From Candidatus Latescibacterota bacterium (GTDB lineage: Bacteria; Latescibacterota; UBA2968): DNA of 27,640 bases. Every line of letters starts with the position of its first letter. The stretch's first letter is position 1. The position numbers and the translations under genes are program-made. The notes under the pieces were generated by a model. It saw only the letters and a program-made list of their open reading frames with translations. It did no database searches and had not been told where the DNA came from. Below, in pieces: positions 2,836 to 20,240 of this stretch. The stretch is from the NCBI GenBank assembly GCA_964200925.1, contig CAXNEV010000001.1, forward strand, positions 1 to 27,640. Direction: 5' to 3'.

Positions 2836-2870
2836 GGGTGTGGTTCCTTTTTTAACAGGGTATTTTCACC

Positions 2871-3205
2871 ATGCCTTCGGCGACCTACTTTTGCTGGCGC
2901 GAACCGTGTCACACACAACCCCCTCCCTCCCGGTTTGTAACGACACAAAAGTAGGCAAAAAGTCGTTCCCTCAAATGCCGGGAGGGCTGATTTGACTCGC
3001 GGCTGCGCCGCTCATGCGAAACAAGGGGCACTTCGTGCCCAATCACCCGCTTCGCGGGTCTTGTTTGGTCCGCATCCCCACAGAATGCTCGACATGAAAT
3101 AGCCTGCCAGCGATAAAGGCGTTTCAAAAGGTGTTGCGAAACGGAATGGCGCGGAAAATCGGCAGATGGTCTTTTTAAATGGGGTTTTGAGTGTTGAACC
3201 TGTTG
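2871..3205. repeat. Modular dispersed intergenic repeat, copy A (longest, with two extra cassettes)
   Basis: Shares ATGCCTTCGGCGACC, GGCAAAAAG, GGAGG(G)CTGATTT and CGCGGAAAAT blocks with 18695-18980 and 19902-20136. The right boundary is approximate. Confidence 0.9.
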
Positions 3206-3232
3206 AGGTACGATACAACCTTTCGCGGTCGT

Positions 3233-5206
3233 TTACTGTTCGGTTTTGATGAAGATTTGTTCGTGTGTGAGCGGTCGTCCCCAAGCGCCATGGGATTCGG
3301 CAAATGACACATCGTTGGGAATATTTCCGAGGCGTTTGTTCGCCCCCCAAACGCGATAGGCCGCACCCAGCGGAATAGCAGGAATGTTGTTGGTGAACAA
3401 ATCGCGAGCCCTTGTCATACAGATGCGCACTTCGGCTGTGTCGGTGGTGGTGGCTGCCTGATCAAACAGACGGGTGCATTCTTTTAACCAGTCTGGGCCT
3501 TCTGTGCTGGCATTGCGGTGCCAGTAGGGCATATTGGGGCCGCTGATGACCCATTCTTCGCGGTTGCTCAACGGATCGTCGGCACTGTCGAACCACCAGT
3601 GGTGAACGTCAAATTCACCGCTGTATCGGCGAGGTACAATGATGTCGCGCAGTGCGGCAAAGGTGTTGACTTTGATGCCCACTGCCTGCCAATGGGCGGT
3701 GGCCAGTTCGGTGACATCGCCTTTGCCACTGGAACTGGTGGCAATGTCGATGGTGAATTCAAACCGCGAGCCATCGTGAAATTCGCGATACCCATCGCCA
3801 TTGGTGTCGCGATATCCTGCCTGGTCGAGCAATTTTTTGGCTTGATCGGGATCATAGTCGCTAAAGCGTTTAAAGGCTGTTTCATTGTAATAGGGATTGG
3901 GTGGATAAAAGGAATATCCAGCCGATACGAGAAAACCGTGGTAGAGCAACTGGCTGATTTCTTCGCGGTTGAGCGCTAAAGACAGGGCGATGCGCACATC
4001 GCGGTTGCGAAAGGCTTTGCGCAATTCTGGATTTGGCGCATCCCAATTGAGGTAAAAAACATGGGCTGGCACGGGGCCAGAGAGGTACACGCGAAATGTT
4101 CCGGTTGTCATTTCAGACTGTTTGAGGGTTTCAAACATGTCGATCTGGGAATAGCGCCCAAAAAGATCGAGTTCTCGGTTGATAAATTTGAGAAGGATGA
4201 CCTGGGTGTCGGGAATGATTTGAAACACGAGTCGGTCTGCATAGGGCAGTTGATTGCCTGCGGTGTCGATTTTCCAGTAGTAGGGGTTGCGTGTGTAAAC
4301 GATGCGCTGACCGTGAATCCACGATGCGGGTATCCAGGCCGATAAAGAGGGCATGCCGGGTGTGTAATAAAATTGGGCGCGGGTGGCTTTTTGCCGAAAT
4401 GTTTCATAAGAGGCTTTGGGATTGTATTTGGGATGCCAGTTTTCGAAAATGTGTTTGGGATAGGCGGCATCGTCCACACCGGCCAGGGTGTTGAGCAATT
4501 GACCCAGGGGTTTATCGGCAGACATGCAAATGGTGTAATCGTCAATTTTTTCCACGATGATGGGTTTGCCATTGACGGTGAAAGCTGGTGGAATGCCCGA
4601 GCGGTCTATGGGGCGGGCATCGTCATTGAAGAGCAGGTCGTTGTAAAAAAAGAGCACATCATCGGCGGTGAAAGGGTGGCCGTTGGACCAGCGGATGCCT
4701 TTGCGCAAGTGAAGAAAAAGTTTGGTTCCGCCCTTCTGGAAGGCCCAGCTTTCGGCCAGATTGGGTTCGAGAGAATCGCCCAGGGGGTGCGCAAAGGTGA
4801 GCAGGCCTTCGTTTTTGGCCTTCATCGTGGCGGGAATTTGCACGATGTCGCCGGTGAGCGCGCGGCGCAGTTCCCCACCGTAGGTGCCAATTTGTTCAAA
4901 GGGAACAATGACACGCGGGTTTTCGGGCAGGCGTTTGGAAATGGGTGGCAGGTTTCCTACTTGAACATCTGCTGTCCAGAGTGGGGATTCGTGAAAGGTG
5001 CGTTTGGCGAGAATTTCGGGATCAAGGGACAATGGAGCGCGGGTTTGTTGTAAGGTTGACGGTGTGGAGGTTGTGTGCGGGGTGTTGGATGTGTGTTGTT
5101 GTGGGTCGGGGGCAATGCAGCCAAAAAATAACAACATCATCAGTATGAGAAGGTTTTTGGGTGTGCGATCATTTTTGGATTTGTCAAGATGGGATTGAAA
5201 AGTCAC
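3233..5206 (-). CDS. ABC transporter family-5 (OppA/DppA-like) substrate-binding lipoprotein
   Basis: Lipobox-like LFFGC; motifs PNLAESW, LRKGIRWSNGHPFTADDVLF and RNPYYWKID..GNQLPYAD. GTG start is uncertain. No cognate permease adjacent. Confidence 0.9.
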   Translation of the reverse strand: MTFQSHLDKSKNDRTPKNLLILMMLLFFGCIAPDPQQHTSNTPHTTSTPSTLQQTRAPLSLDPEILAKRTFHESPLWTADVQVGNLPPISKRLPENPRVIVPFEQIGTYGGELRRALTGDIVQIPATMKAKNEGLLTFAHPLGDSLEPNLAESWAFQKGGTKLFLHLRKGIRWSNGHPFTADDVLFFYNDLLFNDDARPIDRSGIPPAFTVNGKPIIVEKIDDYTICMSADKPLGQLLNTLAGVDDAAYPKHIFENWHPKYNPKASYETFRQKATRAQFYYTPGMPSLSAWIPASWIHGQRIVYTRNPYYWKIDTAGNQLPYADRLVFQIIPDTQVILLKFINRELDLFGRYSQIDMFETLKQSEMTTGTFRVYLSGPVPAHVFYLNWDAPNPELRKAFRNRDVRIALSLALNREEISQLLYHGFLVSAGYSFYPPNPYYNETAFKRFSDYDPDQAKKLLDQAGYRDTNGDGYREFHDGSRFEFTIDIATSSSGKGDVTELATAHWQAVGIKVNTFAALRDIIVPRRYSGEFDVHHWWFDSADDPLSNREEWVISGPNMPYWHRNASTEGPDWLKECTRLFDQAATTTDTAEVRICMTRARDLFTNNIPAIPLGAAYRVWGANKRLGNIPNDVSFAESHGAWGRPLTHEQIFIKTEQ

Positions 5207-5216
5207 AGAAAAACGG

Positions 5217-5256
5217 CCCTCACCCTCAGTCCCGCTCCCGCATGCAGGAGCGGGAA
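5217..5256. repeat. REP-like palindrome of the CCCTCACCC type
   Basis: CCCTCACCCTCAG leader followed by the 9-bp stem TCCCGCTCC (5230-5238) / GGAGCGGGA (5247-5255); intergenic. Single copy in the window; family assignment is from recall. Confidence 0.55.
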
Positions 5257-5482
5257 GGTGTTGGTGGTATTGTTGTGTGGTTGGTTTTTTTGGTCAGGGT
5301 GAAACGGGGTGCTTTTGTGATCGTCTAATCAGGTGTATTGCATGATCCAATACCTCTACAAACGATGCCCACTGCGCCACCGAACAGGTGCAGATACGTA
5401 CTGGATACAATTGATGGCTGTGTGGGACAATATAAAAGGATGGTAGGAGCTTGGTAGTACGAAATGTGAGGAGGCTGTTGAA

Positions 5483-5986
5483 ATGGGTAAAAAAAACCGG
5501 TTGCTGATGGTTTGTTTGGGTATGATGACTTTGGGTTTGTGCGCGGTTTTTGGTGTCAGCTGGGCGGATGACGATGATCACGGCAGAAAACGGCGTGGAC
5601 ATGAGGATCATGAAAAAGCAGAACGCGGTAAAAACAAACACAAGGCAAAATTGATTACTGCAACAGATGCAACATTTGTTCAGACCTGTGGTGCCTGTCA
5701 TATGCCCTATGCGCCGGGTTTGTTGCCTTTGGCTTCGTGGAAAAATATTTTGAGTCACCAAGAGAATCATTTTGGTGAAGAACTGGGTATTGATCCAAAC
5801 GATCTTGCAAAAATTACTCTTTATTTGGAACAAAATGCTGCGGATAAACGAAATACAGAACTTTCAAAAAAGATTATGCGCAGTACGGGAGGACAGATGC
5901 CCGTGCGGATTACAGAGGTTCCGTACATTAAGGCCAAACACAAAAAGCGAAAGTTGGTGCCAGATTGCACGTCCTGTCATAAGTAG
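5483..5986 (+). CDS. Dihaem cytochrome c (DHC family)
   Basis: AGGAGG RBS, signal peptide, His/Asp-rich linker, two CXXCH motifs (CGACH, CTSCH), and HMPYAPGLLP, HFG and RITE motifs. Confidence 0.85.
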   Translation: MGKKNRLLMVCLGMMTLGLCAVFGVSWADDDDHGRKRRGHEDHEKAERGKNKHKAKLITATDATFVQTCGACHMPYAPGLLPLASWKNILSHQENHFGEELGIDPNDLAKITLYLEQNAADKRNTELSKKIMRSTGGQMPVRITEVPYIKAKHKKRKLVPDCTSCHK

Positions 5987-6036
5987 TTGGAATAACTTTT
6001 AAGGATGGGTTGGGTTTTAAAGCAGGGTTCATGAAT

Positions 6037-6074
6037 CAAACTGCCCGGTCAACATAATTTGATCGGGCAGTTTG
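6037..6074. terminator. Hairpin between convergent genes, probable bidirectional terminator
   Basis: 11-bp perfect stem CAAACTGCCCG / CGGGCAGTTTG between the cytochrome stop (5986) and the peptidase stop (6092). Confidence 0.7.
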
Positions 6075-6091
6075 TGTTGTGCTGATTTTTT

Positions 6092-7402
6092 TCAGGCGGT
6101 TTTGCATTCGAATGTTTTGATTAAAGACTGGATGGTTTCGAGCATTGTGCACGTGTTTTCGGCCATGTAGTCGGTGAGCATTTTTTGGGCATGGGCCTCG
6201 TTTCCGGCGTTAATGAGCTGGCGGCCATCGGAGGCGATTTGATAGGCAGTTTTGAAAAGTTGATTCTGAATGGTTTGCCACTGGGTGCGCATCTGAGGCA
6301 CGCGATCTTCGGGGTGTGATCGCACCAACTGGTTGAGTCTGTGAAACTGCCACCAGGGGCTTTTGCTGCTGAAAGTGGCATCACCCACGTTGAGGATGGT
6401 TGGAAGTTGGCCTTCGATGAAGGTGGGAAGAAACAGGGCAAGGCAGGGGGAATAAAAACCACACCAGTACACAGGCAGACATGAGCCATTGGCACACAGG
6501 TCGGCAACGAGGCTGGCTGCGGTGTTGCCACCGGTGCCATCCTGGTTGCAGTGGACACAAATGCCACCCTGTTTGAGGTCGGTTTGAAATGTTTGCGGGG
6601 GTGATTGGGCATTGCCGTGATCTGAGAGAAGGGCCATCATGGTGTGCACATCGATCTGGCCTTTTTGATGAGACAACACGGCACAGGATCGGGCGCGGCG
6701 CGTGGCCCCGCTGCCTTCGGTTCGGCTGGATTCTGTGAAGGCAGCGGCAAAATTGAACCGACCTGTGGGAGACGTTTTGCCCAGTTCAATGGCTTTTTGT
6801 TGGGCGCAGGACGACAGGCGTATCCAGTCGGTTTCGATTGAATAGACATTGCTGATGCCCAATGTGCTTTCCACTTTTTTGACGGCCCAGTCGTGACCAG
6901 CCGTTTCAATGACATAGGCTTCGTGTGGATCGGCCACGATGTAGCTGTTGTCATAGGTGCGCACATTTGAGGTATTTTCAAATTTGCCTTGGCCAAATTG
7001 CAATATGAGGTCGGTTATGACGGCAACGGCTTCCGAGGCGGTGCGACCGCGTTCCAGGCCGAGGCGCAATAGTTCCATGCCGATGAGTTTGGGCGTTTTG
7101 GAAACGGGCAAATGAGAATGTACGGCTTCGTTGCCAATGACAACCTGGTGTTCGTTGAATCCGTGTTCGTAGCCCCAGCACCAGAAGGGGCGTGATCCGA
7201 TGTGGCGATAGGTTTTTTGAACTTCAGGTATGGTGATGAACTGGCAATATGTTTGGGTATTTTGCGGATGTGTTTTTCGATCGCGGAGGATGAGTGGCTG
7301 GCATTCATCGGCCGGGCGGTCGCTGTTTTTGGCAAAAATGGTTTGGCCATTCAATGTGGCATTGCCGAGTGCAACCATTGTGTCACAACTTTGGGGTTTC
7401 AT
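6092..7402 (-). CDS. Peptidase C69 / secernin-like Ntn-hydrolase
   Basis: N-terminal SCDT (nucleophile Cys), AKNSDRP, WGYEHGFNEHQVVIGNEA and YIVADPHEAYVIETAG. ATG at 7402 with upstream AGGA is preferred over TTG at 7408. Confidence 0.9.
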   Translation of the reverse strand: MKPQSCDTMVALGNATLNGQTIFAKNSDRPADECQPLILRDRKTHPQNTQTYCQFITIPEVQKTYRHIGSRPFWCWGYEHGFNEHQVVIGNEAVHSHLPVSKTPKLIGMELLRLGLERGRTASEAVAVITDLILQFGQGKFENTSNVRTYDNSYIVADPHEAYVIETAGHDWAVKKVESTLGISNVYSIETDWIRLSSCAQQKAIELGKTSPTGRFNFAAAFTESSRTEGSGATRRARSCAVLSHQKGQIDVHTMMALLSDHGNAQSPPQTFQTDLKQGGICVHCNQDGTGGNTAASLVADLCANGSCLPVYWCGFYSPCLALFLPTFIEGQLPTILNVGDATFSSKSPWWQFHRLNQLVRSHPEDRVPQMRTQWQTIQNQLFKTAYQIASDGRQLINAGNEAHAQKMLTDYMAENTCTMLETIQSLIKTFECKTA

Positions 7403-7418
7403 TTGCAATATCCTGATT

Positions 7419-9620
7419 TTATGATTTTTCCTCTGTCTGAGGAACAGTTTTCATTGGAATGCGCACACAAAACTTCGCGCCCTTTTTTTCTTCACTTTCC
7501 ACATCTATCATCCCTCCATAAGCATTCAACAATTGTCGGGCCATATACAACCCTAACCCGGTGCCCTGGGGTCTGTCATTGTCTCCTGTTTTGGTGGTAT
7601 AAAAAGGGTCGAACAATTTTTCCAGATGGGCTTTTGGAATTCCACACCCCGTATCGAGAATTTCGACCAGAATCCCCTCGCCTGTCAGGTGAGTTGTCAC
7701 AACTGTTAGAATTTTTTCATTTTGATCGTACATGGCCTCAATGGCATTGCGCAACAAAATGCCAAATATTTGGGCAAAGTCCGAGTAAACCCCGGAAACA
7801 ATGGGCAAGTGCAGATCCAGATGAATCTCTGTTTTAACTTCTTTTTGAAAAAAGGGATCGGAATACAAAAAATCTAATTCCTGTTTGAGCAGGTGGTTCA
7901 AATCGACTCTGTCCGGTGTTTTTTTTTGTCGGTTTTTTGCCAAAATATTTTCGATCATAACATGCATATTTTCTGACGCAGACACAATGCGATCCACTTC
8001 GCTCAAATGGGGATGTTTCATTTTTAACATTTCGGCATAACCCAGTATGCTCGTCAACGGGTTTTTCAAATTGTGCACAATGCCTGCCGCCACAGTTCCC
8101 ATTGCGGCCATGCGCTCCGATTGCACCAGTTGGCGTTCCAACTGCCGCCGCGCCGAATCGGCCTGTTTGCGTTCGCGAATGTCGCGCACAGCCACCACGC
8201 CCACTGTTTTTCCAGCATAGGGCACTGACCGACCAATGACTTCAATGGGAAATTCTTCGCCTTTTTTGGGACAAATGGTTGCCTCAAAGGGCTGCTCGTT
8301 GTTGTCACGAATGTGGGTGATGGCCATCAAACGCGCCTGACGCCCCACAAAGCGCCAGCAGTTTTTTCCAATGAGTTCCGATCCTTTTGAGAACCCCAGC
8401 ATGCGTGCAAATTGGTCATTGGCATCTAAAATGACACCGCCCTGGTGAATAAAAATGCCCTCAAATGCCGATTCTGAAAGCATCCGAAATCGCGCTTCAC
8501 TTTCTCGCAATGCCGCTTCAGCAGCCAAACGATTTGTGATATTTCTGGCGGCACAGACCATGCCCAGCGTTTCACCAGCCGGATTTTGCAACATCGCTCC
8601 CGACAGCAACACTGGAATTTCCCGTTTGGTTTTGGTCAGTAGCCGTTTTTCCACGTTTCGAATAGTACCGTGTTGAAGCAGTTGCGCCACCATGGTACCG
8701 TCGAAAAATCCGTCCTGATCAGAAGCAAAAAGCATCTGGGCAGGTTGTTCAAGCAGTTCGGATTCCGCATAACCCAATAAATTGCACAATTCGATATTAA
8801 CTGTTTCAATGTACCCTTTAGGGGTCATCACAAACAGGGCATCATTCATCGACCTGAGAATGTTTTCTGTATAGTCGCGTGTTGCAATCAACGCCGTTTG
8901 AGACAGTTTCAGGTGATTGGTCATCTGATTGAATGCTTCTGATAACGTATGCAATTCATCAGAGGTATGCACCTCGATTTGCCGATCCAGATCGCCCATA
9001 GAAACAGCTTGGGTGGCTTCGGTTAACACCTTTAACGGACGCGTCACATGCCCGACAAAAAAGACGGTTAATATTGTTCCAAAAACAATGAACCCCGCGC
9101 CAAAGCCAAAATTCCAGTACTCAATTTCTGTGATTTCTGTTTGTATTTTGGCCAGGGAAAACCCCACTCGTACCCCTCCCAGCTTTTTTTGATTCACATC
9201 AATGGCTTTTGCCACATCTAAAATATGATGCGTCATTTGCACCATCACCGAATCAACCGCTACCGCGCGCAAACTCACCGGGTCGTTTAAAGGTTGTTTT
9301 CGCGATGGATTTTCATGGCCATCTGTTAAAATATATCCCGCATGGTCAAACACATACACATAAGAAACTTCATCCTGAGAAAGCACATTGGTGAGCAACG
9401 GCATCAGATTGTGATTGTTTGTTTCACCCATGGCATCCGAAACACCCGCGGCCAACAAAGATGTGATGGACAGGGCTTTGTTTAACAACCGCTGTTGGAT
9501 GACGGTTTCTTGCGATTGAATGTTGTGCAGCGTAATCAAAACTGTAAAAACAATTAAAAGCAGCACAATAAAAGAAATGAATTTGGCTTTTAAACGAAAT
9601 GCAATCGGTGCAAAATTCAA
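7419..9620 (-). CDS. Membrane sensor histidine kinase (2 TM, HAMP, 2 PAS, HisKA, HATPase_c)
   Basis: HAMP motif DELHTLSEAFNQM, two PAS repeats, H-box AAGIVHNLKNPL, N-box RNAIEAM, DTGCGI, FDPFYTTK and GTGLGL. TTG start. Confidence 0.92.
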   Translation of the reverse strand: MNFAPIAFRLKAKFISFIVLLLIVFTVLITLHNIQSQETVIQQRLLNKALSITSLLAAGVSDAMGETNNHNLMPLLTNVLSQDEVSYVYVFDHAGYILTDGHENPSRKQPLNDPVSLRAVAVDSVMVQMTHHILDVAKAIDVNQKKLGGVRVGFSLAKIQTEITEIEYWNFGFGAGFIVFGTILTVFFVGHVTRPLKVLTEATQAVSMGDLDRQIEVHTSDELHTLSEAFNQMTNHLKLSQTALIATRDYTENILRSMNDALFVMTPKGYIETVNIELCNLLGYAESELLEQPAQMLFASDQDGFFDGTMVAQLLQHGTIRNVEKRLLTKTKREIPVLLSGAMLQNPAGETLGMVCAARNITNRLAAEAALRESEARFRMLSESAFEGIFIHQGGVILDANDQFARMLGFSKGSELIGKNCWRFVGRQARLMAITHIRDNNEQPFEATICPKKGEEFPIEVIGRSVPYAGKTVGVVAVRDIRERKQADSARRQLERQLVQSERMAAMGTVAAGIVHNLKNPLTSILGYAEMLKMKHPHLSEVDRIVSASENMHVMIENILAKNRQKKTPDRVDLNHLLKQELDFLYSDPFFQKEVKTEIHLDLHLPIVSGVYSDFAQIFGILLRNAIEAMYDQNEKILTVVTTHLTGEGILVEILDTGCGIPKAHLEKLFDPFYTTKTGDNDRPQGTGLGLYMARQLLNAYGGMIDVESEEKKGAKFCVRIPMKTVPQTEEKS

Positions 9621-9632
9621 GAGAGCCTCGGT

Positions 9633-11489: not shown

Positions 11490-11503
11490 AAAAACAATCT
11501 GCC

Positions 11504-13465: not shown

Positions 13466-14352
13466 TGTAATTCTCCTCCACTGCGTTCAAGAGCTGGTCG
13501 ATCAATGATCATTCCTGCATCGGTCGCAGCAGACAAACTCACGCGAAAAATCACTTTTTCAGGATATACAACCGCAGCTACCTTTTCTCCCGATAATACG
13601 CGTTTAACAACCAGCCCTGCAGTTCGACCAATTTCTTCAAAACCACAGGCCACCGATGCCACAGCCCCTTTATCAACCAGCCCGCCGCTTGGCACATATA
13701 AAGGCACATCGTTGGATCGCGAAAAGGTTCGAAACAATTCGAAACTTTGTGCATTAATCAACACGGGATCGGGGGGCAACCACACTCCATTGATGTGGCT
13801 GTGCAACATCTGACGCAACCCTTCGGGTAAATCGTCAAGGCTGTGCACATGTTCGGCAACAATTACAATGCCCCATTGCTGAGCGGCCTGCTTGAGTGCA
13901 TTGACATACAACAACTGGGCATCGGATGCCCAAAATATGCCCAATCGGGTTAAATTAGGTTGCAACAGTTTTAACCGAGAAATGACATCTGTTGCAGGAG
14001 GCAACATGGTGACTTTTATCGCTTCGCCTCGTTTTTCGCGCTCATCCAAATTCACACCGGGTGCCAGGCAATAAACCACCAGCGTTCCTGCCGGGTAGGA
14101 AGACAATGCGGCTTTGCCACCAAAAGCCACCACCACCCGTGTGACAGTGGGTGCATGTGAAGCCTCATCGCTCAAATTGATTCGGCGAATTGGCGCACCA
14201 TAAGCTGTCTGAAAAGCCTCAAAAGCCTTTTCATAGGGTTCGATGCTGGCACTTAATATGGCTGTCACTTCCTGGCCAGCGCATGGCACAGAGCTAAGTG
14301 CACATGCAAACAGGGCAACAGCCTTAAAAAGCCGATTTAAAAGAAGGATCAT
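13462..14352 (-). CDS. Periplasmic ABC_sub_bind-type (type I PBP) ligand-binding protein
   Basis: Signal peptide; motifs LQPNLTRLGI, GVWLPPDP, LVDKGAVASVACGFEEIGRTAG and SLSAATDAG; ATGA overlap with the receptor start. Confidence 0.8.
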   Translation of the reverse strand: MILLLNRLFKAVALFACALSSVPCAGQEVTAILSASIEPYEKAFEAFQTAYGAPIRRINLSDEASHAPTVTRVVVAFGGKAALSSYPAGTLVVYCLAPGVNLDEREKRGEAIKVTMLPPATDVISRLKLLQPNLTRLGIFWASDAQLLYVNALKQAAQQWGIVIVAEHVHSLDDLPEGLRQMLHSHINGVWLPPDPVLINAQSFELFRTFSRSNDVPLYVPSGGLVDKGAVASVACGFEEIGRTAGLVVKRVLSGEKVAAVVYPEKVIFRVSLSAATDAGMIIDRPALERSGGELQ

Positions 14353-14403
14353 CTGGATAGCGATTAAAAGCGAATGGGTTTTGTGATGATTGTTCGCTCT
14401 AAA

Positions 14404-14520
14404 ATCCCGCGCTACGCGCGGGGATCCAAAGGCTCACGGAAAACGTCGATGCTCCGCATCCTTTCCGTTCGACCTTCGGCCGAGACATAAAGCCACCAGC
14501 TTTCGCAGGTGGTCGTTTAG
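14404..14520 (-). mobile_element. Four-hairpin element; probable non-autonomous IS200/IS605-type end/MITE, or a structured RNA
   Basis: Minus-strand hairpins CCACC-T-GC(GAAA)GC-T-GGTGG, TCGGCC(GAA)GGTCGA, ACGGAAA..GATGC(GGA)GCATC..TTTCCGT and CCCGCGC(GTA)GCGCGGG. The end CTAAACGACCAC..GTGGCTT resembles IS200/605-type termini from recall. Confidence 0.5.
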
Positions 14521-14780
14521 TGCCCAATAAATCTACAAAAAAGTTGGAAGAATCCGTTACATAATTGGTGTGCCGTCAAATTTTTTTAGAATGAGCAAAA
14601 ATGAAACCACGGCTTTTTTTGAAAAATAAAATTTTCTCAAAAGCATTAATCATTTGTGCCACAAAAAATTACAAACAATTATAAGAATGGATATCAAAAT
14701 CCCCATAGTGCCACAAAAGGCGCAAATTCGCCAGTGCCAAAAAAGAAAAGGCCGCACTTCAGACATGCGGCTTAGAGAAT

Positions 14781-14844
14781 GGGCAGGCACACAGGTCTGT
14801 CCTTATATGATGGTTTACAAGCAGACACACGGGTCTGCGCCAAC
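14781..14844. repeat. Two degenerate REP-like palindromes in direct orientation
   Basis: GGGCAGGCACACAGGTCTGTCCTTAT (14781-14806) and GCAGACACACGGGTCTGCGCCAAC (14821-14844) share the GCAG(A/G)CACAC(A/G)GGTCTG core, similar to GTAG-family REPs. Confidence 0.65.
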
Positions 14845-14923
14845 TTGGGACTCGTCCAAAAAATAGACGAATGGGCGAATTGCAGATTTGTCATAAACCG
14901 GAAAGTTATTTCTGGATGAACCC

Positions 14924-16066
14924 TTAAATACCCGGTCGCATGCCTGTGCCGTAGCCTGTTAATTCCACATATCCTTTTCCAACCTGTTTTCCGTCCAAAT
15001 CTCTGACAGATACAGCGCCCTCCCAATAAAACAACCTTTCAATCCGTGAACCACGGTTTTCCTGGTTAGCCATCATGGCAATAACCTGCCACACCTGTCC
15101 ATTTATTTGCACCTGCCATGTTGTTGGATATTGCGCATGCGTATTTGGGCTTTTCCAGTAGGTTGTTGCACGCACATCAAAATCGCCACGCGACAAATGG
15201 TGCACCCGTCCTTCAGCATCACTCCATGTGCCGCGTGCATAATCTGTCGCACCTGTGGAATCGCGCAATATATACAACATCACGTCGCGCCCATCGTTTA
15301 GTTGCAAGCTGAACCAATCCCATCCCGTTTGATGGTCGCCCAATTGATTCGAGCCAAATTCTTTGTCCATCCAGCTTGCACCTGTCACAACCGCTGTTTC
15401 ACCGCCTACCGTCAGTTTGCCCTGGGTTTTCAACCGGGTAAAACTGTAATACTGGCTGGCGGCATTGTCGCTTTTGCCTTTGCGACTATATCCGTTTGGC
15501 CCTTGCAGAATTAATGGTTTTTGGGGATATGTCTGCAACTCAAATGCCATGTCTTGAGCATTGTCTGCCATTGAAAAATCAAATGCAACGCCATTCCATT
15601 GCAATGTCCATTTTTTGGCAGTGCCCGTTGGACCCCGGCTCCAGGCAATTAATGTATCGGGAAACACGCCGAAGCCACCCAGCAGGGGGGTTGTTCGATA
15701 CAGTACCTCGCTAAACACATGGGTGGTGTCGTTCAGATTGCTGATTGCCGCATGGCCCATGATCAACTGATTGGTTGCCCACTCCGAATTCAGTTCGGAT
15801 TTTTGGGGCATTAATCCCACGCGAAAAAAAGTAAACTGATACCCAAATTTTTGGCCCGTTGCCGTTTCCAAATGCCCGGTAAAGTACCACCACTCGGTTT
15901 TATATTCTGTTCGCGCCCAGTGATCTTGTGGAAATGACCACGGATAATGGGGTTGTGCGGTGCGCCATTCTTCGGCAAAAAGCGGGGATGCAATAACCAT
16001 TGAAATAAGAATAACAGTCTGGAACATTCCAAACCCCTGTTGCGGAAAATCACGTCTGTCTTGCAT
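14924..16066 (-). CDS. Secreted lipocalin-like / CrtC-fold protein (AttH-like)
   Basis: Motifs FPQDH, TEWWYFTGHL, GYQFTFFR, YYSFTRL, WMDKEF, GWDWFSLQL, YWEGAV and GYVELTGY. The start may be at MFQT (16027). Confidence 0.85.
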   Translation of the reverse strand: MQDRRDFPQQGFGMFQTVILISMVIASPLFAEEWRTAQPHYPWSFPQDHWARTEYKTEWWYFTGHLETATGQKFGYQFTFFRVGLMPQKSELNSEWATNQLIMGHAAISNLNDTTHVFSEVLYRTTPLLGGFGVFPDTLIAWSRGPTGTAKKWTLQWNGVAFDFSMADNAQDMAFELQTYPQKPLILQGPNGYSRKGKSDNAASQYYSFTRLKTQGKLTVGGETAVVTGASWMDKEFGSNQLGDHQTGWDWFSLQLNDGRDVMLYILRDSTGATDYARGTWSDAEGRVHHLSRGDFDVRATTYWKSPNTHAQYPTTWQVQINGQVWQVIAMMANQENRGSRIERLFYWEGAVSVRDLDGKQVGKGYVELTGYGTGMRPGI

Positions 16067-16138
16067 GTTGATCGAGTGATAAAATCTTAAATTGGCCCGA
16101 CCTGAAATCGGTTCATAGACAGATATACAGGACTACCC

Positions 16139-18667
16139 CTACACATCTTCCCGTCGCAATTCGGTTGCTGGTGTGCGGCTGGCTTTGAGTGCCGGATACA
16201 GGCTGACCAGCATTGCCGCACCCAAAATGATTGCCCCCTGTTGTATGAGTGCTTCCCACGGCCAATACACCTGAATTGTCCAGCCAAAATAGGCCCGGTT
16301 AATGACAAAAATCAACACCATGGCCAGCGAAATTCCCCCTGCTGTGCCCATTGCCAAACCCAGCAAGCCCATGCCCAAACCTTTGCCCAGAAACAAAAAA
16401 AACACCTGTTCCCTGGTGCTGCCCAGTGCCCGATACAAAGCCAGTTCTGACATCTGTTCTCGGGCCAGTACCAGAAGCATTAGGGCAATGCCACAAACCG
16501 CAATGGCCAAACCGATGTTCTGCAACAGCCTGGTTACGGCAAATGTTTGATCAAATATGTCCATCGCTTCATGACGCAAGCGCCGGTTGCTGCGAATTTC
16601 AAGAGGGGCGGTTGAAAATTGCGCCCGCAAATCATCCACCACTTCTTCGGCATTCAGCCCTGGTTTTAAATACAATGCCACACTGTTTACCGGCCCAGCT
16701 CCCCAGTGTGTTTGCAGGGTGTGCAAATCCATGATCACAGCACCGCCTTGTGCGTTATAATCGCAATATACCCCGGCAATGGGAAAAAGATGCAAGCCGT
16801 TTGACACATAAATTGCCACGTTATCACCGGGCCACAAATTTTGTTTGCGCGCCAGCGTTTCACCAATCAAAACAGCGCCTTCTTTTTGTACCCGGTTATA
16901 GGCTGTGCGGGCATCTCCTGAGAGCAGTGTAAACCGAGTTGTGCCACCTGGCAATCCCATATCTATTCCGGCCAGCGCAATGCGTTGATCGCCGGGTATG
17001 TAGGCTGTAAACCCGCGCAACCGGTCTATTGCTTTTACACTGGGATGGGTTTGCAAAGCGGCAATAAACTGATCGTCGAGAAAAGCCTCGTCACCCTGTC
17101 CGCGCCACGAAGCTGGCGACACATAAATGTCGGCCTGTATGGTTGTTTGTATCCACACTTGTAATGTTTGGCGAAAACTGCCGATCATCAGTGTGATGCC
17201 CACCAGCATACTCACTGCAATGCCTAAAGCCGCAACGGCAAATGCCGTGGTTTGCAATCGGGTGCCCAAACTCTTCACACTGTATTGGAACCCAAAATTC
17301 CGCACCCGAATCCACCCTGTTATTTTTTGAATCATAAGAGGGGTCATCAGCGGCAACCCGATCAACACACTCAGTGCCAGAACAAAACCCGCATGTTGCC
17401 AAAACCGCCCAATGATCCCATACCAGATACCCACCCCTGAGAGCAAAACCAGCCCCCCTATGCTCAAGTGCGGGGCCAATGACCCGATTTTTTCGTGAAG
17501 GGTAAATGCCGATAACAACGTGCGGGTATCTTTGCGACTCATATCCAGAGCAGGGATTAACGCACCAGTTATTGCACCGCCGATGCCTATGAGTGCCGCC
17601 AGCCCAAACAGCCAATAGGGCAATTCAAGTTCATGTATTTCTTCTAATAAATACAAATTGGTCAGCGCTGTACTGACGACTTCCACATTGGCTTTGGCAC
17701 CCCAATAACCCATTGGCAAACCAAACAGAACCCCCAGGCCACCCAACAAAACCACCTCACCCATGATCAGGCCAAATACCTGTATTCGCGATGCCCCAAT
17801 AGATCGCAACATGCCAAACTCAGCCCGTCGGCGCACCAGAGATGCCTGTGTGCTGCTATAGACCAGAAACAACCCCACGAACAAACTGATCAAACTCAAG
17901 GCCGTTAAATTCAATCGGAACGCCGACAACAACCCGGCTGTTTGTCGCGACCGCTGTTCCGGGTTTACAACCTGAACCGATAGGCCCAATTTTTCCTGTA
18001 AACGCGCTCGCACATGGTTTGCATCCACTCCTTTTTTTACCACCACGTCGATCTGGTGAATGTGGCCCACGCGCCCAAGCAGATGCTGTGCTTGAGCAAT
18101 GTCCATGACCACCATTTTGGGACTTGCCAATGGGCTTACTTTTTGAAAGTCAACCAGCGCTCCCACATGCAGCCATATCACACGAGATCCGCTGTAAACC
18201 TGAACCGAATCACCCAGGGCCCACCCCATCTGCTTGGCCAGTGTGGGTGTAAATGCCGCCCAGCCCGGTTTGGACAGGGCATCTGACCATTCGGACGGTT
18301 CACCCTGCCAGGGCACGCGCACCGGGGCAAAAAAATCCACGCCGATGATTTCCAGAAAAAACCGTTCGCGATTGGATAGTGCCGCGCTTACCCGATACAA
18401 TGGCCAGGCCGACTGCACACCCGGTTCGGCCAGCACAGCCACATATAACGATTCGGGCAAGGTGGGTGTGCGCCCCAATACGCTGAAATCGGCATCACCA
18501 CTTACCGCGTGCATGCTGCCTTCAAAGGCCGCCAGTGCATTGCGGTTGATGATCTGCATCGACAGCACCGCCGCCACACCCAAAGCCACGCCCAGAACGG
18601 TGAGCAAAAACAGGCTGCGGCCTGCACGAAAATGTGCGACATAGGCTTTGAAGAAGTAGTGAATCAA
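16139..18667 (-). CDS. FtsX/MacB-type ABC permease with duplicated domains (AttFG-like)
   Basis: 842 aa with two FtsX-type TM blocks (AFRLNLTALSLISLFVGLFLVYS; RRAEFGMLRSIGAS; LALYRALGST) and motif FIFVINRAYFGWT-like LIFVINRAYFGWT. TTG start is uncertain. Confidence 0.9.
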   Translation of the reverse strand: MIHYFFKAYVAHFRAGRSLFLLTVLGVALGVAAVLSMQIINRNALAAFEGSMHAVSGDADFSVLGRTPTLPESLYVAVLAEPGVQSAWPLYRVSAALSNRERFFLEIIGVDFFAPVRVPWQGEPSEWSDALSKPGWAAFTPTLAKQMGWALGDSVQVYSGSRVIWLHVGALVDFQKVSPLASPKMVVMDIAQAQHLLGRVGHIHQIDVVVKKGVDANHVRARLQEKLGLSVQVVNPEQRSRQTAGLLSAFRLNLTALSLISLFVGLFLVYSSTQASLVRRRAEFGMLRSIGASRIQVFGLIMGEVVLLGGLGVLFGLPMGYWGAKANVEVVSTALTNLYLLEEIHELELPYWLFGLAALIGIGGAITGALIPALDMSRKDTRTLLSAFTLHEKIGSLAPHLSIGGLVLLSGVGIWYGIIGRFWQHAGFVLALSVLIGLPLMTPLMIQKITGWIRVRNFGFQYSVKSLGTRLQTTAFAVAALGIAVSMLVGITLMIGSFRQTLQVWIQTTIQADIYVSPASWRGQGDEAFLDDQFIAALQTHPSVKAIDRLRGFTAYIPGDQRIALAGIDMGLPGGTTRFTLLSGDARTAYNRVQKEGAVLIGETLARKQNLWPGDNVAIYVSNGLHLFPIAGVYCDYNAQGGAVIMDLHTLQTHWGAGPVNSVALYLKPGLNAEEVVDDLRAQFSTAPLEIRSNRRLRHEAMDIFDQTFAVTRLLQNIGLAIAVCGIALMLLVLAREQMSELALYRALGSTREQVFFLFLGKGLGMGLLGLAMGTAGGISLAMVLIFVINRAYFGWTIQVYWPWEALIQQGAIILGAAMLVSLYPALKASRTPATELRREDV

Positions 18668-18694
18668 TAGGCCACCATTCAGAATTTATTTTTT

Positions 18695-18980
18695 ATGCCT
18701 TCGGCGACCAGTGGGTGTCATAAATGACACCCCTACAGATCGGCTTACAGATTGGTGAATCAATTGTAGAGACACCATTTATGGTGTCGTTGGCAAAAAG
18801 GCCGCCCTTCAAGTGCCAGGGAGGCTGATTTTCCGCGAATATCTCCACGGGATGCTCATAAGCAGATGGCCTGTCAACGATGGCGGTGTTTTGCAATGTG
18901 TAGCGAAACGGAATGGCGCGGAAAATTTTCCTGTATCGCATGTTTTGGGCATTGAAAGTGTTTATACCCTGTAAAGATGA
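18695..18980. repeat. Modular dispersed intergenic repeat, copy B (carries a REP doublet)
   Basis: Same conserved blocks as copies A and C; lies between the ABC ATPase and permease genes. Confidence 0.88.
18713..18788. repeat. Inverted pair of GTAG-tagged REP palindromes (REPIN/BIME-like)
   Basis: Minus strand GTAGGGGTGTCATTTATGACACCC (18736-18713) and plus strand GTAGAGACACCATTTATGGTGTC (18766-18788), separated by 29 nt. Confidence 0.75.
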
Positions 18981-18997
18981 GATAAAACTGTAACCCC

Positions 18998-19684
18998 TCA
19001 TGAGGGAATGGACAATTCCCCACTGTGGATTTCCCAGATAACATCGGCCAGTTTTGCAAATTCCCGGCTGTGTGTGACAAATACCAGTGTGGTTCCATTT
19101 TCATCGGCCAGCGACAACAACAAATCCATGACCCGACGTCCATTTTCATCGTCGAGATTGCCCGTGGGCTCATCGGCCAGCAGCACTTTGGGTTTGCGCA
19201 ACAGCGCCCGACAAATCGCCACCCGTTGCATTTCCCCACCTGACAATTTTTGCACGGGATCGCGCACCCGGTCTGCCAATCCAACACGATGGAGCAAATC
19301 TACCACGCGTTGTTCCATCTGTGGGGTGCGATCTCCTGCGATCATCGCTGGAAGGGCCACGTTGTCGCTTACGGACAGATGGGGCAACAGGTGAAAAAAT
19401 TGAAAAATCAATCCAACCTGGTTTCGGCGAATTCGCGTGCGGTCGCCTTCTGATACGGCACTTAAATCCTGGCCCATCACACACACGTTGCCGGTGGTGG
19501 GCACATCAATGCCTGCCGATAAGTGCAAGAGGGTTGATTTGCCACTGCCGCTGCGTCCCACAATGGCCACTTTTTTCCCCTGGGGCACAACAAACGACAC
19601 ATCGCGCAGGGCATATCGGCTGCCGCTGCCAAATGTTTCGTAAACTTTTGAGACGCCGTCAAACGATAGAGCCGATGTCATCAT
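18998..19684 (-). CDS. ABC transporter ATP-binding protein (LolD/MacB-like; AttE-like)
   Basis: Walker A GRSGSGKST, Q-loop LIFQ, signature LSGGEMQR, Walker B LLADEPTGNLD and H-loop VTH. Confidence 0.95.
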   Translation of the reverse strand: MMTSALSFDGVSKVYETFGSGSRYALRDVSFVVPQGKKVAIVGRSGSGKSTLLHLSAGIDVPTTGNVCVMGQDLSAVSEGDRTRIRRNQVGLIFQFFHLLPHLSVSDNVALPAMIAGDRTPQMEQRVVDLLHRVGLADRVRDPVQKLSGGEMQRVAICRALLRKPKVLLADEPTGNLDDENGRRVMDLLLSLADENGTTLVFVTHSREFAKLADVIWEIHSGELSIPS

Positions 19685-19901
19685 GTGTGTCCTGGTTTTG
19701 CGTATGAATCAGCAATTATCCGCATGTGTTTTGAACCGCATACAAAGTAATGAAAACGCACCAAAAAACAAGGTGATGCACCTTGAAAATGCTTGCCGCC
19801 TGATGCTTGCACACCTAAATTGCGGCAACTCGTTATTCAATATGGGCTGACAAAGCTCCCTGAAGTCCCCTTTAAAAACGTATCTTTTATCACATTTTTG
19901 T

Positions 19902-20136
19902 ATGCCTTCGGCGACCTACTTTTGTAACGACACAAAAGTAGGCAAAAAGTCGTTCCCTCAAACGCCGGGAGGGCTGATTTTCCGCGAATATCCCCATAGG
20001 ATGCATTCGATAAGATGGCCTATCAAGCTCAGAAGTGTTTCAAAGTATGTTGCGATGGGAATCGCGCGGAAAATCCGTTCCTGTATCGCGTGTTTATTGA
20101 CGGTGAGCATTGCAGGTGTGTATATCCTGTAATGAT
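19902..20136. repeat. Modular dispersed intergenic repeat, copy C (shortest)
   Basis: ATGCCTTCGGCGA-CCTACTTTTG(taacgaca)CAAAAGTAGG-CAAAAAGTCGTTCCCTCAAA; nearly identical to copy A over this block once A's insertion is removed. Confidence 0.9.
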
Positions 20137-20240
20137 GTGATAAAACGTAGTTCTAAAAAGGGGAAATGACTGTTTGTATGTAATCTGAAAAACTCACAAT
20201 TTTTTATGCTTGAGTGCTTATTTCTTGAAAAGAGCGTCCT

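Follow-up and report, generated by a model that had tools for sequence, protein, structure and literature searches.

A conserved folded core unites a family of small, probably non-autonomous mobile elements in a lake Latescibacterota genome

In the mosaic repeats BOX (Streptococcus pneumoniae, boxA-boxB(n)-boxC), BIME (E. coli) and NIME (Neisseria), fixed modules recur between genes in varying combinations and are predicted to fold; none of the three is known beyond its own lineage. Longer variants of the ERIC repeat arise by insertions at fixed internal sites. ERIC, or IRU, belongs to Enterobacteriaceae (Sharples & Lloyd 1990; Hulton 1991; Wilson & Sharp 2006; cited in PMC3184786), and BOX is listed as MITE-like and transcribed (PMC3184786). 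Bacterial MITEs include Correia/CREE of Neisseria, RUP, Nezha and Chunjie (reviewed in Delihas 2011, PMC3184786). GTAG-tagged REPs and REPINs have been described with their RAYT transposases (Di Nocera et al. 2013, PMC3733652), and REP hairpins are themselves targeted by insertion sequences such as IS621 and ISKpn1 (references in PMC3184786).

Here we describe, in the genome of an uncultured lake Latescibacterota bacterium (3.55-Mb draft, 82% complete), a repeat family with at least 60 members, all of them small, mobile and non-coding. Like MITEs, its members are small, non-coding and foldable, occur in many intergenic copies with terminal inverted repeats and target-site duplications, and carry no transposase gene of their own. 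Unlike in MITEs, it is the inner core rather than the ends that is conserved across genera, with compensatory changes in its helices; the ends around this shared core differ from genus to genus, recognisable ends are missing from most copies, and no parent IS was found in the source genome. The family resembles BOX, BIMEs and NIMEs in its variably combined, foldable intergenic modules, but it is unrelated to them in sequence, has hairpin cassettes at two fixed scaffold points rather than variable tandem modules, and shares its head with several phyla. With ERIC/IRU it has in common an imperfectly palindromic intergenic form, unusual conservation across genera, longer variants produced by insertion at fixed sites and, in some copies, inverted ends and duplications. 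It differs from ERIC in sequence, fold and phylum, in its loop–linker pairing and swappable long-range helix, and in the cross-phylum occurrence of its head, ERIC not being known outside Gammaproteobacteria.

The window, the whole stretch of 27,640 nt that was analysed, holds three copies, A, B and C, whose features are listed here together with one gene from another contig of the same genome.

2863..3222, plus strand: copy A, core 2871-3160, with both cassettes and a 3′ extension of the CGGCAGAYGG type, without recognisable inverted ends
2895..2938, plus strand: loop insert of 44 nt in the slot-1 hairpin of copy A, common only to copy A and a copy on contig C17
2994..3068, plus strand: slot-2 cassette of copy A, 75 nt with three hairpins, interrupting the P3 5′ strand between GATTT and TCCGC
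18688..18993, plus strand: copy B, core 18695-18926, left end degenerate, remnant of the right inverted end at 18976-18993
18710..18791, plus strand: two GTAG-tagged palindromes in place of hairpin P2 in copy B, with 12 copies in the genome
19871..19878, no strand: left target-site duplication of copy C, TTTAAAAA, identical to 20152-20159 at 7 of 8 positions
19879..20151, plus strand: copy C, complete element (MITE form) with plain slot 1, empty slot 2, both inverted ends and a flanking 8-bp repeat
19879..19901, plus strand: left terminal inverted repeat of copy C, CGTATC TTTTATCACAT TTTTGT, kept in about 20 copies
19902..19954, plus strand: head of copy C (invariant 14-mer, hairpin P2, GGCAAAAA spacer and linker), supported by P2 compensatory changes, loop–linker co-variation and cross-phylum occurrence
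19915-19925 paired with 19932-19942, plus strand: P2 of copy C
19949-19954, plus strand: linker GTCGTT of copy C, complementary to the P2 loop AACGAC at 19926-19931
19976..19986, plus strand: P3 5′ strand of copy C, GATTTTCCGCG, pairing with 20065-20075
20065..20075, plus strand: P3 3′ strand of copy C, CGCGGAAAATC, with compensatory swaps in P3
20126..20151, plus strand: right inverted end of copy C, ...ATGTGATAAAA CGTAG, reverse-complementary to the left one
20152..20159, no strand: right target-site duplication of copy C, TCTAAAAA, counterpart of 19871-19878
C58:3039-3401: Y1 gene of IS200 type, followed by a frame read as tnpB, with flanks unrelated to the repeats

A first-pass annotation had recognised these three copies as co-oriented, and all are indeed on the plus strand. 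They share the scaffold it outlined: ATGCCTTCGGCGACC begins at 2871, 18695 and 19902, and GGCAAAAAG, GG(A/G)GG(G)CTGATTT and CGCGGAAAAT follow downstream in every copy. The spacing it gave between the head and the next start codon on the minus strand (36, 28 and 218 nt) was confirmed, as were the plain slot-1 hairpin of copy C (19915-19942), the same hairpin with the 44-nt insert in copy A, and the 75-nt multi-hairpin, found in slot 2 of A alone among the three. The GTAG-tagged palindromes of copy B are present too, and replace the hairpin instead of sitting inside it. The copies lie at the positions given, but similarity continues beyond CGCGGAAAAT (nhmmer extents 2863-3222, 18688-18990 and 19883-20157 for A, B and C), and copy C proves to be a complete element. 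The family is also larger than first described: the proposed copy-number search returned 76 nhmmer matches in the source genome, far more than three copies, of which about 55 are near full length, with copy lengths of 187-399 bp. The 14-mer TGCCTTCGGCGACC occurs 34 times, far above chance, compared with 0 for its reversed control. Because the hairpin loop lengths differ by non-multiples of 3, the copies could share no consistent open reading frame.

At the centre of the scaffold lies a core of about 175 nt with three pairings, kept by compensatory change across at least three genera: the hairpin P2, a pairing of the P2 loop with the linker after GGCAAAAA, and the long-range helix P3. Such changes are seen within the source genome and between genera and, for the hairpin and the loop pairing, also between phyla. 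P2 is 98.6% paired, compared with 48-64% when slid, and has double compensatory changes at 6 of its 11 pairs. P3 is 99.7% paired, and 5 of its 8 pairs are swapped on both sides, both between genera and within a single genome, G012, which carries the two versions of P3 on an otherwise identical body. Loop–linker co-variation reaches 3.74, compared with 2.98 ± 0.09 after permutation, and the pairs observed are AACGAC/GTCGTT, ACGGC/GCCGT, GTGCCC/GGGCAC, AGAGAC/GTCTCT, AGGCA/TGCCT and CTTGAA/TTCAAG. Pairing of this kind is more typical of functional RNA than of DNA, which runs against the view of the element as DNA. Conservation is uneven along the element, at 90-99% in the helices and the 14-mer and 35-70% in loops and ends, and begins abruptly at NTGCC. 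The fold of copy C is better than that of shuffled sequences on both strands (z = -3.0 and -4.2). The 768 P2 pairs include 9 G-T and 11 A-C mismatches, and this strict Watson–Crick pairing, with no wobble bias on either strand, leads us to lean towards a fold that would act as DNA, in replication or transposition, rather than as a free-standing RNA.

The core is older than the TTTTATCACAT-type ends. Other genera have the same core within different outer shells, and the end 13-mer TTTTATCACAT itself, with 15 occurrences in the source genome, was found a single time in each of 2 among 30 further genomes of the bacterial family; among the 31 searched, these ends are essentially confined to the source genome. 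The 60-base 5′ head of the core (TGCCTTCGGCGACC, hairpin, GGCAAAAA) recurs more widely, in several other bacterial phyla, being multicopy in Fibrobacterota, Bacteroidota, Calditrichota and Oscillospiraceae genomes; this head alone is found joined to unrelated bodies and in other phyla. Within the bacterial family its 14-mer is present in 23 of 28 genomes, mostly in 1-6 copies with bursts of 191, 46, 40, 34 and 28, and low-copy genomes hold copies at orthologous sites. Outside the class it was found once in 37 sampled genomes, and 2.9 million viral contigs gave 0 matches.

Complete copies are 250-275 bp long, with imperfect terminal inverted repeats around TTTTATCACAT (matched by ATGTGATAAAA, plus 6 further outer bases) and 8-bp target duplications. 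Both ends are present in 8 copies, and in 5 of these 8 the flanking 8-mers are identical at 7-8 of 8 positions. Insertion sites are short intergenic gaps, often AT-rich loops of other hairpin repeats. Copy C lies in the AT loop of one such repeat, an uninterrupted paralogue of which is found at C172:735; a joint of 19870 to 20155 is present in a single metagenome contig, with 27 nt on the shorter side, and is ambiguous in that it may come from a paralogue. Copy B occupies a 330-nt gap between an ABC ATPase gene (18998-19684, minus strand) and its FtsX/MacB permease gene (16139-18667, minus strand). The orthologous junction measures -4 to 71 nt, with neither element nor scaffold motif, in 10 of 11 relatives, and 114 nt in the eleventh (G005), where it is filled by a different repeat. 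By these comparisons, copy B is a lineage-specific insertion within the operon.

The earlier proposal of a non-autonomous mobile element is supported by the copy number, the inverted ends and 8-bp duplications, the element-free junction for copy B, the uninterrupted paralogue of the copy C target, and a patchy distribution with copy-number bursts. The elements agree with MITEs in several defining properties: small size (below about 400 bp), many copies, no transposase gene, terminal inverted repeats, a duplication of fixed length, and presence or absence at conserved sites. The family probably consists of short non-coding mobile elements that are non-autonomous and share a conserved folded core; it would be nested mobile DNA, not a gene-regulatory leader. 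Complete copies would be moved in trans by a DDE-type transposase making an 8-bp staggered cut, although no such enzyme was found. Neither an IS with the same ends nor an end-like sequence beside a non-core body was found in the source genome, which is weak evidence of absence in a fragmented, 82% complete assembly. Only 8 of about 55 copies have both ends; copy A has neither in recognisable form, and the left end of copy B is eroded. Copies without ends match the core consensus as closely (0.865) as those that have them (0.89), and they are not explained by old copies simply decaying. Selection, gene conversion or a second mobilisation mechanism are among the other routes by which the core may spread or be maintained.

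A start codon on the minus strand lies 36 nt (copy A) and 28 nt (copy B) from the head, a layout also seen in one G008 copy, and the first-pass annotation had suggested a cis-acting RNA leader. A leader or riboswitch for minus-strand genes starting 28-36 nt from the conserved end is nevertheless highly improbable, because orientation relative to genes is mixed: of 56 copies surveyed, 22 are antisense (the A/B-type layout), 15 sense, 7 divergent and 8 convergent. Genes beside the copies are of unrelated kinds, with an FtsX-type gene next to only 1 of the 56, and the riboswitch/leader class, with its fixed orientation upstream of a coherent gene set, was rejected on these counts. The conserved strand of A and B runs antisense to the genes, copy B arrived inside an operon as a lineage-specific insertion, and Rfam offers no match. 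The annotation's statement that no named family could be assigned agrees with the Rfam 15 search: at the families' gathering thresholds it found 0 matches in the window and none to the element at 12 loci spanning six phyla, and at E up to 10 it gave only noise. This last result also weighs against a broader reading, which we regard as rather unlikely, that the core, or its head if not the whole, functions as a structured RNA (a small RNA, protein-binding RNA or self-cleaving ribozyme) spread by mobile shells, its fold kept by RNA function. Such an RNA would fit the concentration of conservation in helices and 14-mer and its sharp start, the compensatory changes in P2 and P3, the loop–linker pairing with an A-rich spacer, as in H-type pseudoknots, the constancy of the head across phyla while bodies differ, the occupied orthologous sites in low-copy genomes, and the better-than-shuffled fold of copy C. 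Evidence on transcription, which the annotation had proposed to check, is divided: nine metatranscriptome runs contain 2-3 of 23 sampled element words, so transcription is possible, but two metatranscriptomes with exact pieces of the neighbouring ABC gene show depth 0 on both repeats. A scan of copies B and C revealed no sigma-70-type promoter or terminator within them, orientation relative to genes is unbiased, wobble pairs are rare and equal on both strands, unlike in most RNA families, and the subfamily of 12 copies in which P2 is wholly replaced still multiplied. We suggest tentatively that the head, with its invariant TGCCTTCGGCGACC, A/T-rich hairpin of 9-11 bp, GGCAAAAA spacer and loop-pairing linker, may be a functional pseudoknotted module that is portable and conserved in at least five phyla. 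It could represent an RNA class not yet described, for instance a ribozyme or a protein-recruiting RNA, or else the recognition handle of a new mobilisation system. Repeat bodies of unrelated kinds would then take up this head much as SINEs share one, and the fixed slots would serve as genuine docking sites where tiny hairpin elements form a second tier.

Core and cassettes could instead be single-strand DNA elements of REP/RAYT or IS200/IS605 type, REPIN- or PATE-like, moved through DNA hairpins by a Y1/HUH tyrosine transposase, with the inverted ends secondary. The strictly Watson–Crick helices agree with this, as do GNA triloops on the minus strand of cassette hairpins, cassettes at a fixed sequence without duplication, head-only and end-less copies directly 3′ of T-runs, including terminator tails, and opposite head strand ratios in the two halves of G003 (65:35 and 36:55). 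On contig C58 the source genome also encodes a single Y1 transposase, next to a tnpB-like frame. That sole gene is of IS200 type, however, and not a repeat-flanked RAYT, and its left-end hairpin is unrelated to scaffold and cassettes; the search for a copy beside a RAYT/Y1 tnpA gene, as the annotation had advised, found none. Genome G014 carries 40 heads without any Y1 match, the lineages do not share a fixed tetranucleotide 5′ of the head, and the inverted ends and 8-bp duplications of complete copies are not products of Y1 transposition. We consider this route improbable. An IS200/IS605-derived PATE was ruled out for the element by those same duplications and ends, and by the unrelated C58 hairpin; the cassettes, for their part, show no duplication and a fixed insertion site.

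Within the mobile-DNA family that we favour, cassettes enter at two points, the P2 loop and the inside of the P3 5′ strand, and their combinations vary from copy to copy. The slot-2 cassette has five copies in the source genome, every one at the same site, and no target duplication was found at its junctions. Four copies are 94.7-98.7% alike while their flanking scaffolds are 61-83% alike, which indicates that the cassette arrived separately from its host copies. A longer homologue occupies the same slot in G009, and in related genomes (G003 and G014) a 28-nt cassette occurs at two different scaffold positions. By these comparisons, cassettes are younger than their host copies. Cassette-carrying subfamilies have multiplied as units. 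Cassettes would enter by site-specific insertion into folded single-stranded DNA, or by very precise recombination between copies.

The copy B cassette, with its two oppositely oriented GTAG-tagged palindromes, resembles GTAG REPs. In the source genome, though, all 12 GTAG pairs lie inside the scaffold in a single orientation, which makes them a subfamily and not free REPs, and none was found in 30 related genomes. REP/REPIN was accordingly rejected as a class: among the repeats only this cassette fits the 20-40-bp GTAG/CGTC palindromes, and it is not self-dispersed; the source genome has no repeat-flanked RAYT (Y1) gene; the scaffold is about 175 nt long; and complete copies make duplications. 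The first-pass idea of a landing pad for palindromic elements is partly supported: the GTAG doublet speaks against it, but in its favour are the slot-2 cassette, the 28-nt cassette and IS elements, which lie in the P2 (slot-1) loop in both orientations with 9-bp and 8-bp duplications (G003, G014). As with IS-targeted REP hairpins, hairpins here serve as insertion targets, and the elements are nested.

These repeats constitute a genuine and so far undescribed family of mobile elements that are structured, modular and non-autonomous. Three copies lie in the window, with the following features:

2863–3222, plus strand: copy A, with a 44-nt insert in the loop of hairpin P2 (slot 1)
2994–3068, within copy A: 75-nt three-hairpin cassette in slot 2, a site inside the 5′ strand of the long-range helix P3
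18688–18993, plus strand: copy B
18710–18791, within copy B: GTAG pair (two GTAG-tagged palindromes) in slot 1
19838–19878 and 20152–20180: the two sides of a second hairpin repeat, interrupted by copy C
19879–20151, plus strand: copy C, with a plain slot-1 hairpin
20095–20110: weak run of (T/G)GATGG units

As the first-pass annotation had reported, the three stretches are co-oriented and carry the shared motifs in one common order, and the head (the 5′ ~60 nt, comprising a 14-mer, P2, a spacer and a linker) lies 36, 28 and 218 nt from a minus-strand start codon in copies A, B and C, respectively. Similarity among the copies also extends past CGCGGAAAAT. In the source genome G000 (480 contigs, 3.55 Mb, 82% complete; the window is contig 1), iterated nhmmer searches gave 76 matches to the family, around 55 of them near full length (187–399 bp), and the 14-mer TGCCTTCGGCGACC occurs 34 times, compared with 0 for its reversed control. 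Relatives carrying the element are labelled Candidatus Latescibacterota. Of 28 genomes of the taxonomic family, 23 carry the head, mostly at 1–6 copies, with bursts of 191 (genome G003), 46, 40, 34 and 28; outside the class, it occurs once among 37 sampled genomes. Neither the window nor 12 further loci matched Rfam 15, at the gathering threshold or at E values up to 10, and a full-text literature search with a 13-mer of the element, on both strands, returned a single, unrelated 16S rRNA paper. The head pattern has no matches in viral contigs, and plasmids gave a single marginal 44-nt match.

The first-pass proposal of a non-autonomous mobile element is borne out by element ends, by flanking 8-bp repeats and by a gene junction that is short and scaffold-free in most relatives. 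Around 20 copies begin, before the head, with CTTATC-TTTTATCACAT-TTTTGT, and many finish with ...ATGTGATAAAA-CCTTAG, the inverted complement of the left end. Both ends are present in 8 copies, and in 5 of these 8 the outer 8-mers match at 7–8 of 8 positions (CAAGCAGG; TTAAAAAA; AYCTAAAG; TAAAGAAG/TAAAAAAG; and, for copy C, TTTAAAAA/TCTAAAAA). Because it has both ends and matching flanking 8-mers, copy C is a complete element. It sits in the AT loop of the second hairpin repeat, a target that at least three other copies have hit as well (contigs C97, C213 and C17). This second family has about ten copies in G000 (GGGCTGAYAAA..CCCCTGAAGTCCCC-TTTAAAAA-GGGG.., including those on contigs C172, C15, C31, C97 and C213); it is uninterrupted at C172:735 and forms a long perfect palindrome on C31. 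One contig from a related-lake metagenome joins 19870 to 20155, and this joint, whose shorter side is 27 nt, may be a paralogue of the copy C target. Copy B, in turn, separates an ABC ATPase gene from its FtsX/MacB permease gene, filling the 330 nt between them. In 10 of 11 relatives, the orthologous interval measures −4 to 71 nt (G012, for example, has 40 nt and G004 has 44 nt) and is without the scaffold motif. At this junction in two genomes of genus g6 (loci L155 and L156; G009 and G005), a different repeat built of CGAATAGACGAAT units lies upstream of the permease gene; it is dispersed in G000 (63 matches, for example on contigs C6, C3 and C11).

A search of G000 and 30 genomes of the family for a parent insertion sequence, using the scaffold-element ends, found none, and a candidate at one end of contig C284 came to nothing. 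A Y1 transposase was also considered as mobiliser. The sole Y1 gene in G000 lies on contig C58 (1900–3700 region), encodes 149 aa of the IS200 type and precedes a frame that we read as tnpB; a truncated copy of the B subfamily lies on this contig at a distance of 3.2 kb. The Y1 genes of both C58 and G003 are of the IS200 type and their flanks are unrelated to the repeats, and this candidate was rejected.

The folded core of about 175 nt is older than its ends and outlasts them, being rewrapped with different ends in different genera. The end TTTTATCACAT has 15 occurrences in G000 and, among the 30 other genomes of the family, a single occurrence in each of two; in G003, this core is enclosed by an element of at least ~400 bp with different inverted ends, TA-TACTCTGTAAATTAAAT; and no shared ends were seen among the copies of genus g6. 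Within G000, the head, the helices and GCGAAACGGAAT are 90–99% conserved, compared with 35–70% for loops and ends, and copies that lack ends match the core consensus as closely (median 0.865) as those that have them (0.89). In all genera, for example at loci L023 and L036, a run of (T/G)GATGG units at 11–13-nt spacing lies 3′ of helix P3; it follows the core in G003, in genus g6 and, more weakly, in G000, and may be a protein-binding array.

Covariation supports two helices of the core.

Pairing in the core helices across 91 distinct copies from G000, genus g6 and genus g4
P2 (hairpin): 98.6% paired; 48–64% with the partner slid; changes on both sides at 6 of 11 pairs
P3 (long-range): 99.7% paired; 34–81% with the partner slid; changes on both sides at 5 of 8 pairs

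P3 exists in two versions, ATTTTCCGCG/CGCGGAAAAT and CACAGCGC/GCGCTGTG; genome G012 holds both in bodies that are otherwise the same, and the switch is fully compensated. The linker that follows GGCAAAAA is a complementary match to the P2 loop, and loop and linker co-vary (AACGAC/GTCGTT, ACGGC/GCCGT, GTGCCC/GGGCAC, AGAGAC/GTCTCT, CAGCT/AGCTG, AGGCA/TGCCT and CTTGAA/TTCAAG); their longest complementary run averages 3.74, versus 2.98 ± 0.09 for permuted partners (maximum 3.22 in 200 trials). A further candidate helix, P1, between the invariant 5′ GCCUUCGGCG and CGCCGGGAGGGC, is not counted as established: its changes in Latescibacterota are one-sided only, and in other phyla its duplex energies are mostly no better than those of shuffles, with z ≤ −2 in 2 of ~30 copies (200 shuffles per copy).

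These helices could operate in RNA or in DNA, and the indicators of strand are divided. P1 wobbles point to the plus strand. The cassette hairpins, whose minus-strand triloops are GAA or GCA, and single-sequence folding energy point to the minus strand (copy C: −62.3 kcal/mol, z = −4.2 versus shuffles, compared with −56.1 kcal/mol, z = −3.0, on the plus strand). P2 wobbles favour neither strand: 9 G–T and 11 A–C among 768 pairs, as rare as mismatches, which makes P2 more like DNA hairpins than like most RNA families. Neither repeat was covered in two metatranscriptomes in which exact pieces of the neighbouring ABC gene occur, and nine other RNA runs contained 2–3 of 23 sampled element words. 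No sigma-70-type promoter or terminator was found in the scanned region of copies B and C. Hammerhead, HDV-like and pistol ribozymes and a CsrA sponge were discarded, as the sequence, judged by eye, does not fit their core motifs. Along the G003 chromosome, heads are oriented 65 plus/35 minus in the first 3 Mb and 36/55 in the remainder, with 17 plus-oriented heads in succession at 2.18–2.99 Mb, a skew that may be tied to replication direction or gene strand.

The other first-pass reading, a cis-acting RNA leader, is contradicted by mixed orientation and unrelated neighbouring genes. With flanking frames crudely called as long open reading frames, 22 copies in G000 are arranged like A and B (head beside a start codon, other end beside a stop), 15 are opposite, 7 are flanked by divergent genes and 8 by convergent ones, and the neighbouring genes are unrelated. 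No conserved neighbour protein was found across 19 cross-phylum loci or across 11 loci of low-copy genomes. Adjacency to FtsX/MacB genes recurs at two or three loci, but in G000 only 1 of 56 copies shows it. A short open frame from the head NTG was ruled out because the hairpins vary in length by steps that are not multiples of 3. Scaffold repeats can pass wrongly for regulatory leaders. In genomes with 3–5 copies (G015, G083 and G018; L186/L196 and L193/L194), copies occupy orthologous positions in different species, and two independent loci among them lie, like copy B, upstream of FtsX/MacB-type double permease genes.

Slot contents, described in the first-pass annotation as swappable, do differ among the window copies, but the GTAG palindromes of copy B replace the slot-1 hairpin rather than sitting inside its loop.

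Slot contents of 41 strictly parsed G000 copies (two more cassette-bearing copies failed the parser)
Plain: 29
GTAG pair in slot 1: 9
GTAG pair and slot-2 cassette: 1
Plain slot 1 and slot-2 cassette: 1
44-nt insert and slot-2 cassette: 1

The idea of a landing pad for other elements has good support from several kinds of insert, whereas the GTAG pair speaks against it. Slot-2 cassettes of four copies are 94.7–98.7% identical, whereas their flanks are only 61–83% (64 nt before) and 68–81% (99 nt after) identical, and their junctions are exact and without duplication; the cassette therefore arrived independently, in scaffolds that had diverged beforehand, and its entry would have been by site-specific insertion or very precise recombination. 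Genome G009 has a longer homologue of this cassette in the same slot. Genus g4 has a 28-nt cassette, GAGCGGGGTACAACTGCCCCAGCAGTTC, whose two stems are mutually exclusive or pseudoknotted (loci L019, L026, L028, L038, L064, L067 and L083); it enters after GGC^AAAAA or CAGCGC^AAATCG, both sites being occupied in L064. P2 also receives insertion sequences in this genus (loci L032, L104, L070 in G003, and L045 in G014). One of 1.19 kb, with ends CATACTACGCGACAAAA and a 9-bp duplication GTCTACAGC, occupies the identical P2-loop point of three scaffold copies, with both orientations represented; the other interrupts the P2 stem, has the 8-bp duplication TTTTTTTT and a first frame with a CPHCG zinc-ribbon motif, and is read as IS1595-like. 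The GTAG pair, by contrast, lies within the scaffold in 12 of 12 cases and is present in no relative; it thus identifies a subfamily that expanded following a single event and, as P2 is replaced in that subfamily, P2 is dispensable for multiplication.

In kind, the family comes nearest to bacterial MITEs and to the mosaic or conserved repeats BOX, BIME, NIME and ERIC (PMC3184786, PMC3733652). Unlike these, the scaffold family has a compensated core that outlives its ends, cassettes that dock at fixed slots and a head common to several phyla. It offers, from an uncultured phylum, a clean and well-populated case of selfish DNA arranged in layers, with a transposon shell, a folded core and smaller docking cassettes; the lasting core, a helix in two compensated versions in one genome and the cross-phylum head go beyond ordinary MITE biology. 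The repeats break metagenome assemblies, as many copies lie at contig ends.

An exact-pattern scan for head, hairpin and GGCAAAAA, with one genome per species, located the head in metagenome-assembled genomes (MAGs) labelled Fibrobacter and Chitinispirillaceae; Saprospiraceae, Lewinella, Cytophagales, Rikenellaceae and Chitinophaga; Calditrichota; Oscillospiraceae and Eubacteriales; and Absconditabacterales, together with one Vibrio-labelled MAG. Two matches, in coding sequence, were chance; in five of the cross-phylum genomes the 14-mer occurs 4–23 times, compared with 0 for the control. The bodies 3′ of the head differ from phylum to phylum, and G012 alone has three head-sharing families (loci L166–L185), two with the core and a third whose CA-rich body of ~270 nt is unrelated. 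The 60-nt head, with its co-varying loop–linker pairing, is common to repeat families of distant phyla, including human-gut Oscillospiraceae; should it prove to be a functional RNA or a handle for a transposase, a widespread class of elements missing from current databases would be defined by it. In the Oscillospiraceae MAG (G123; loci L144–L153), the head lies within the ~110-nt inverted ends of 600–800-bp composites that carry GTAG REPs mid-element and adjoin another REP at each outer end. This MAG has 23 heads in 2.1 Mb, many of them 17–110 nt from contig ends. Separately, a ZTP riboswitch (RF01750, 66 bits) was found on a Latescibacterota contig (L085:2589–2675).
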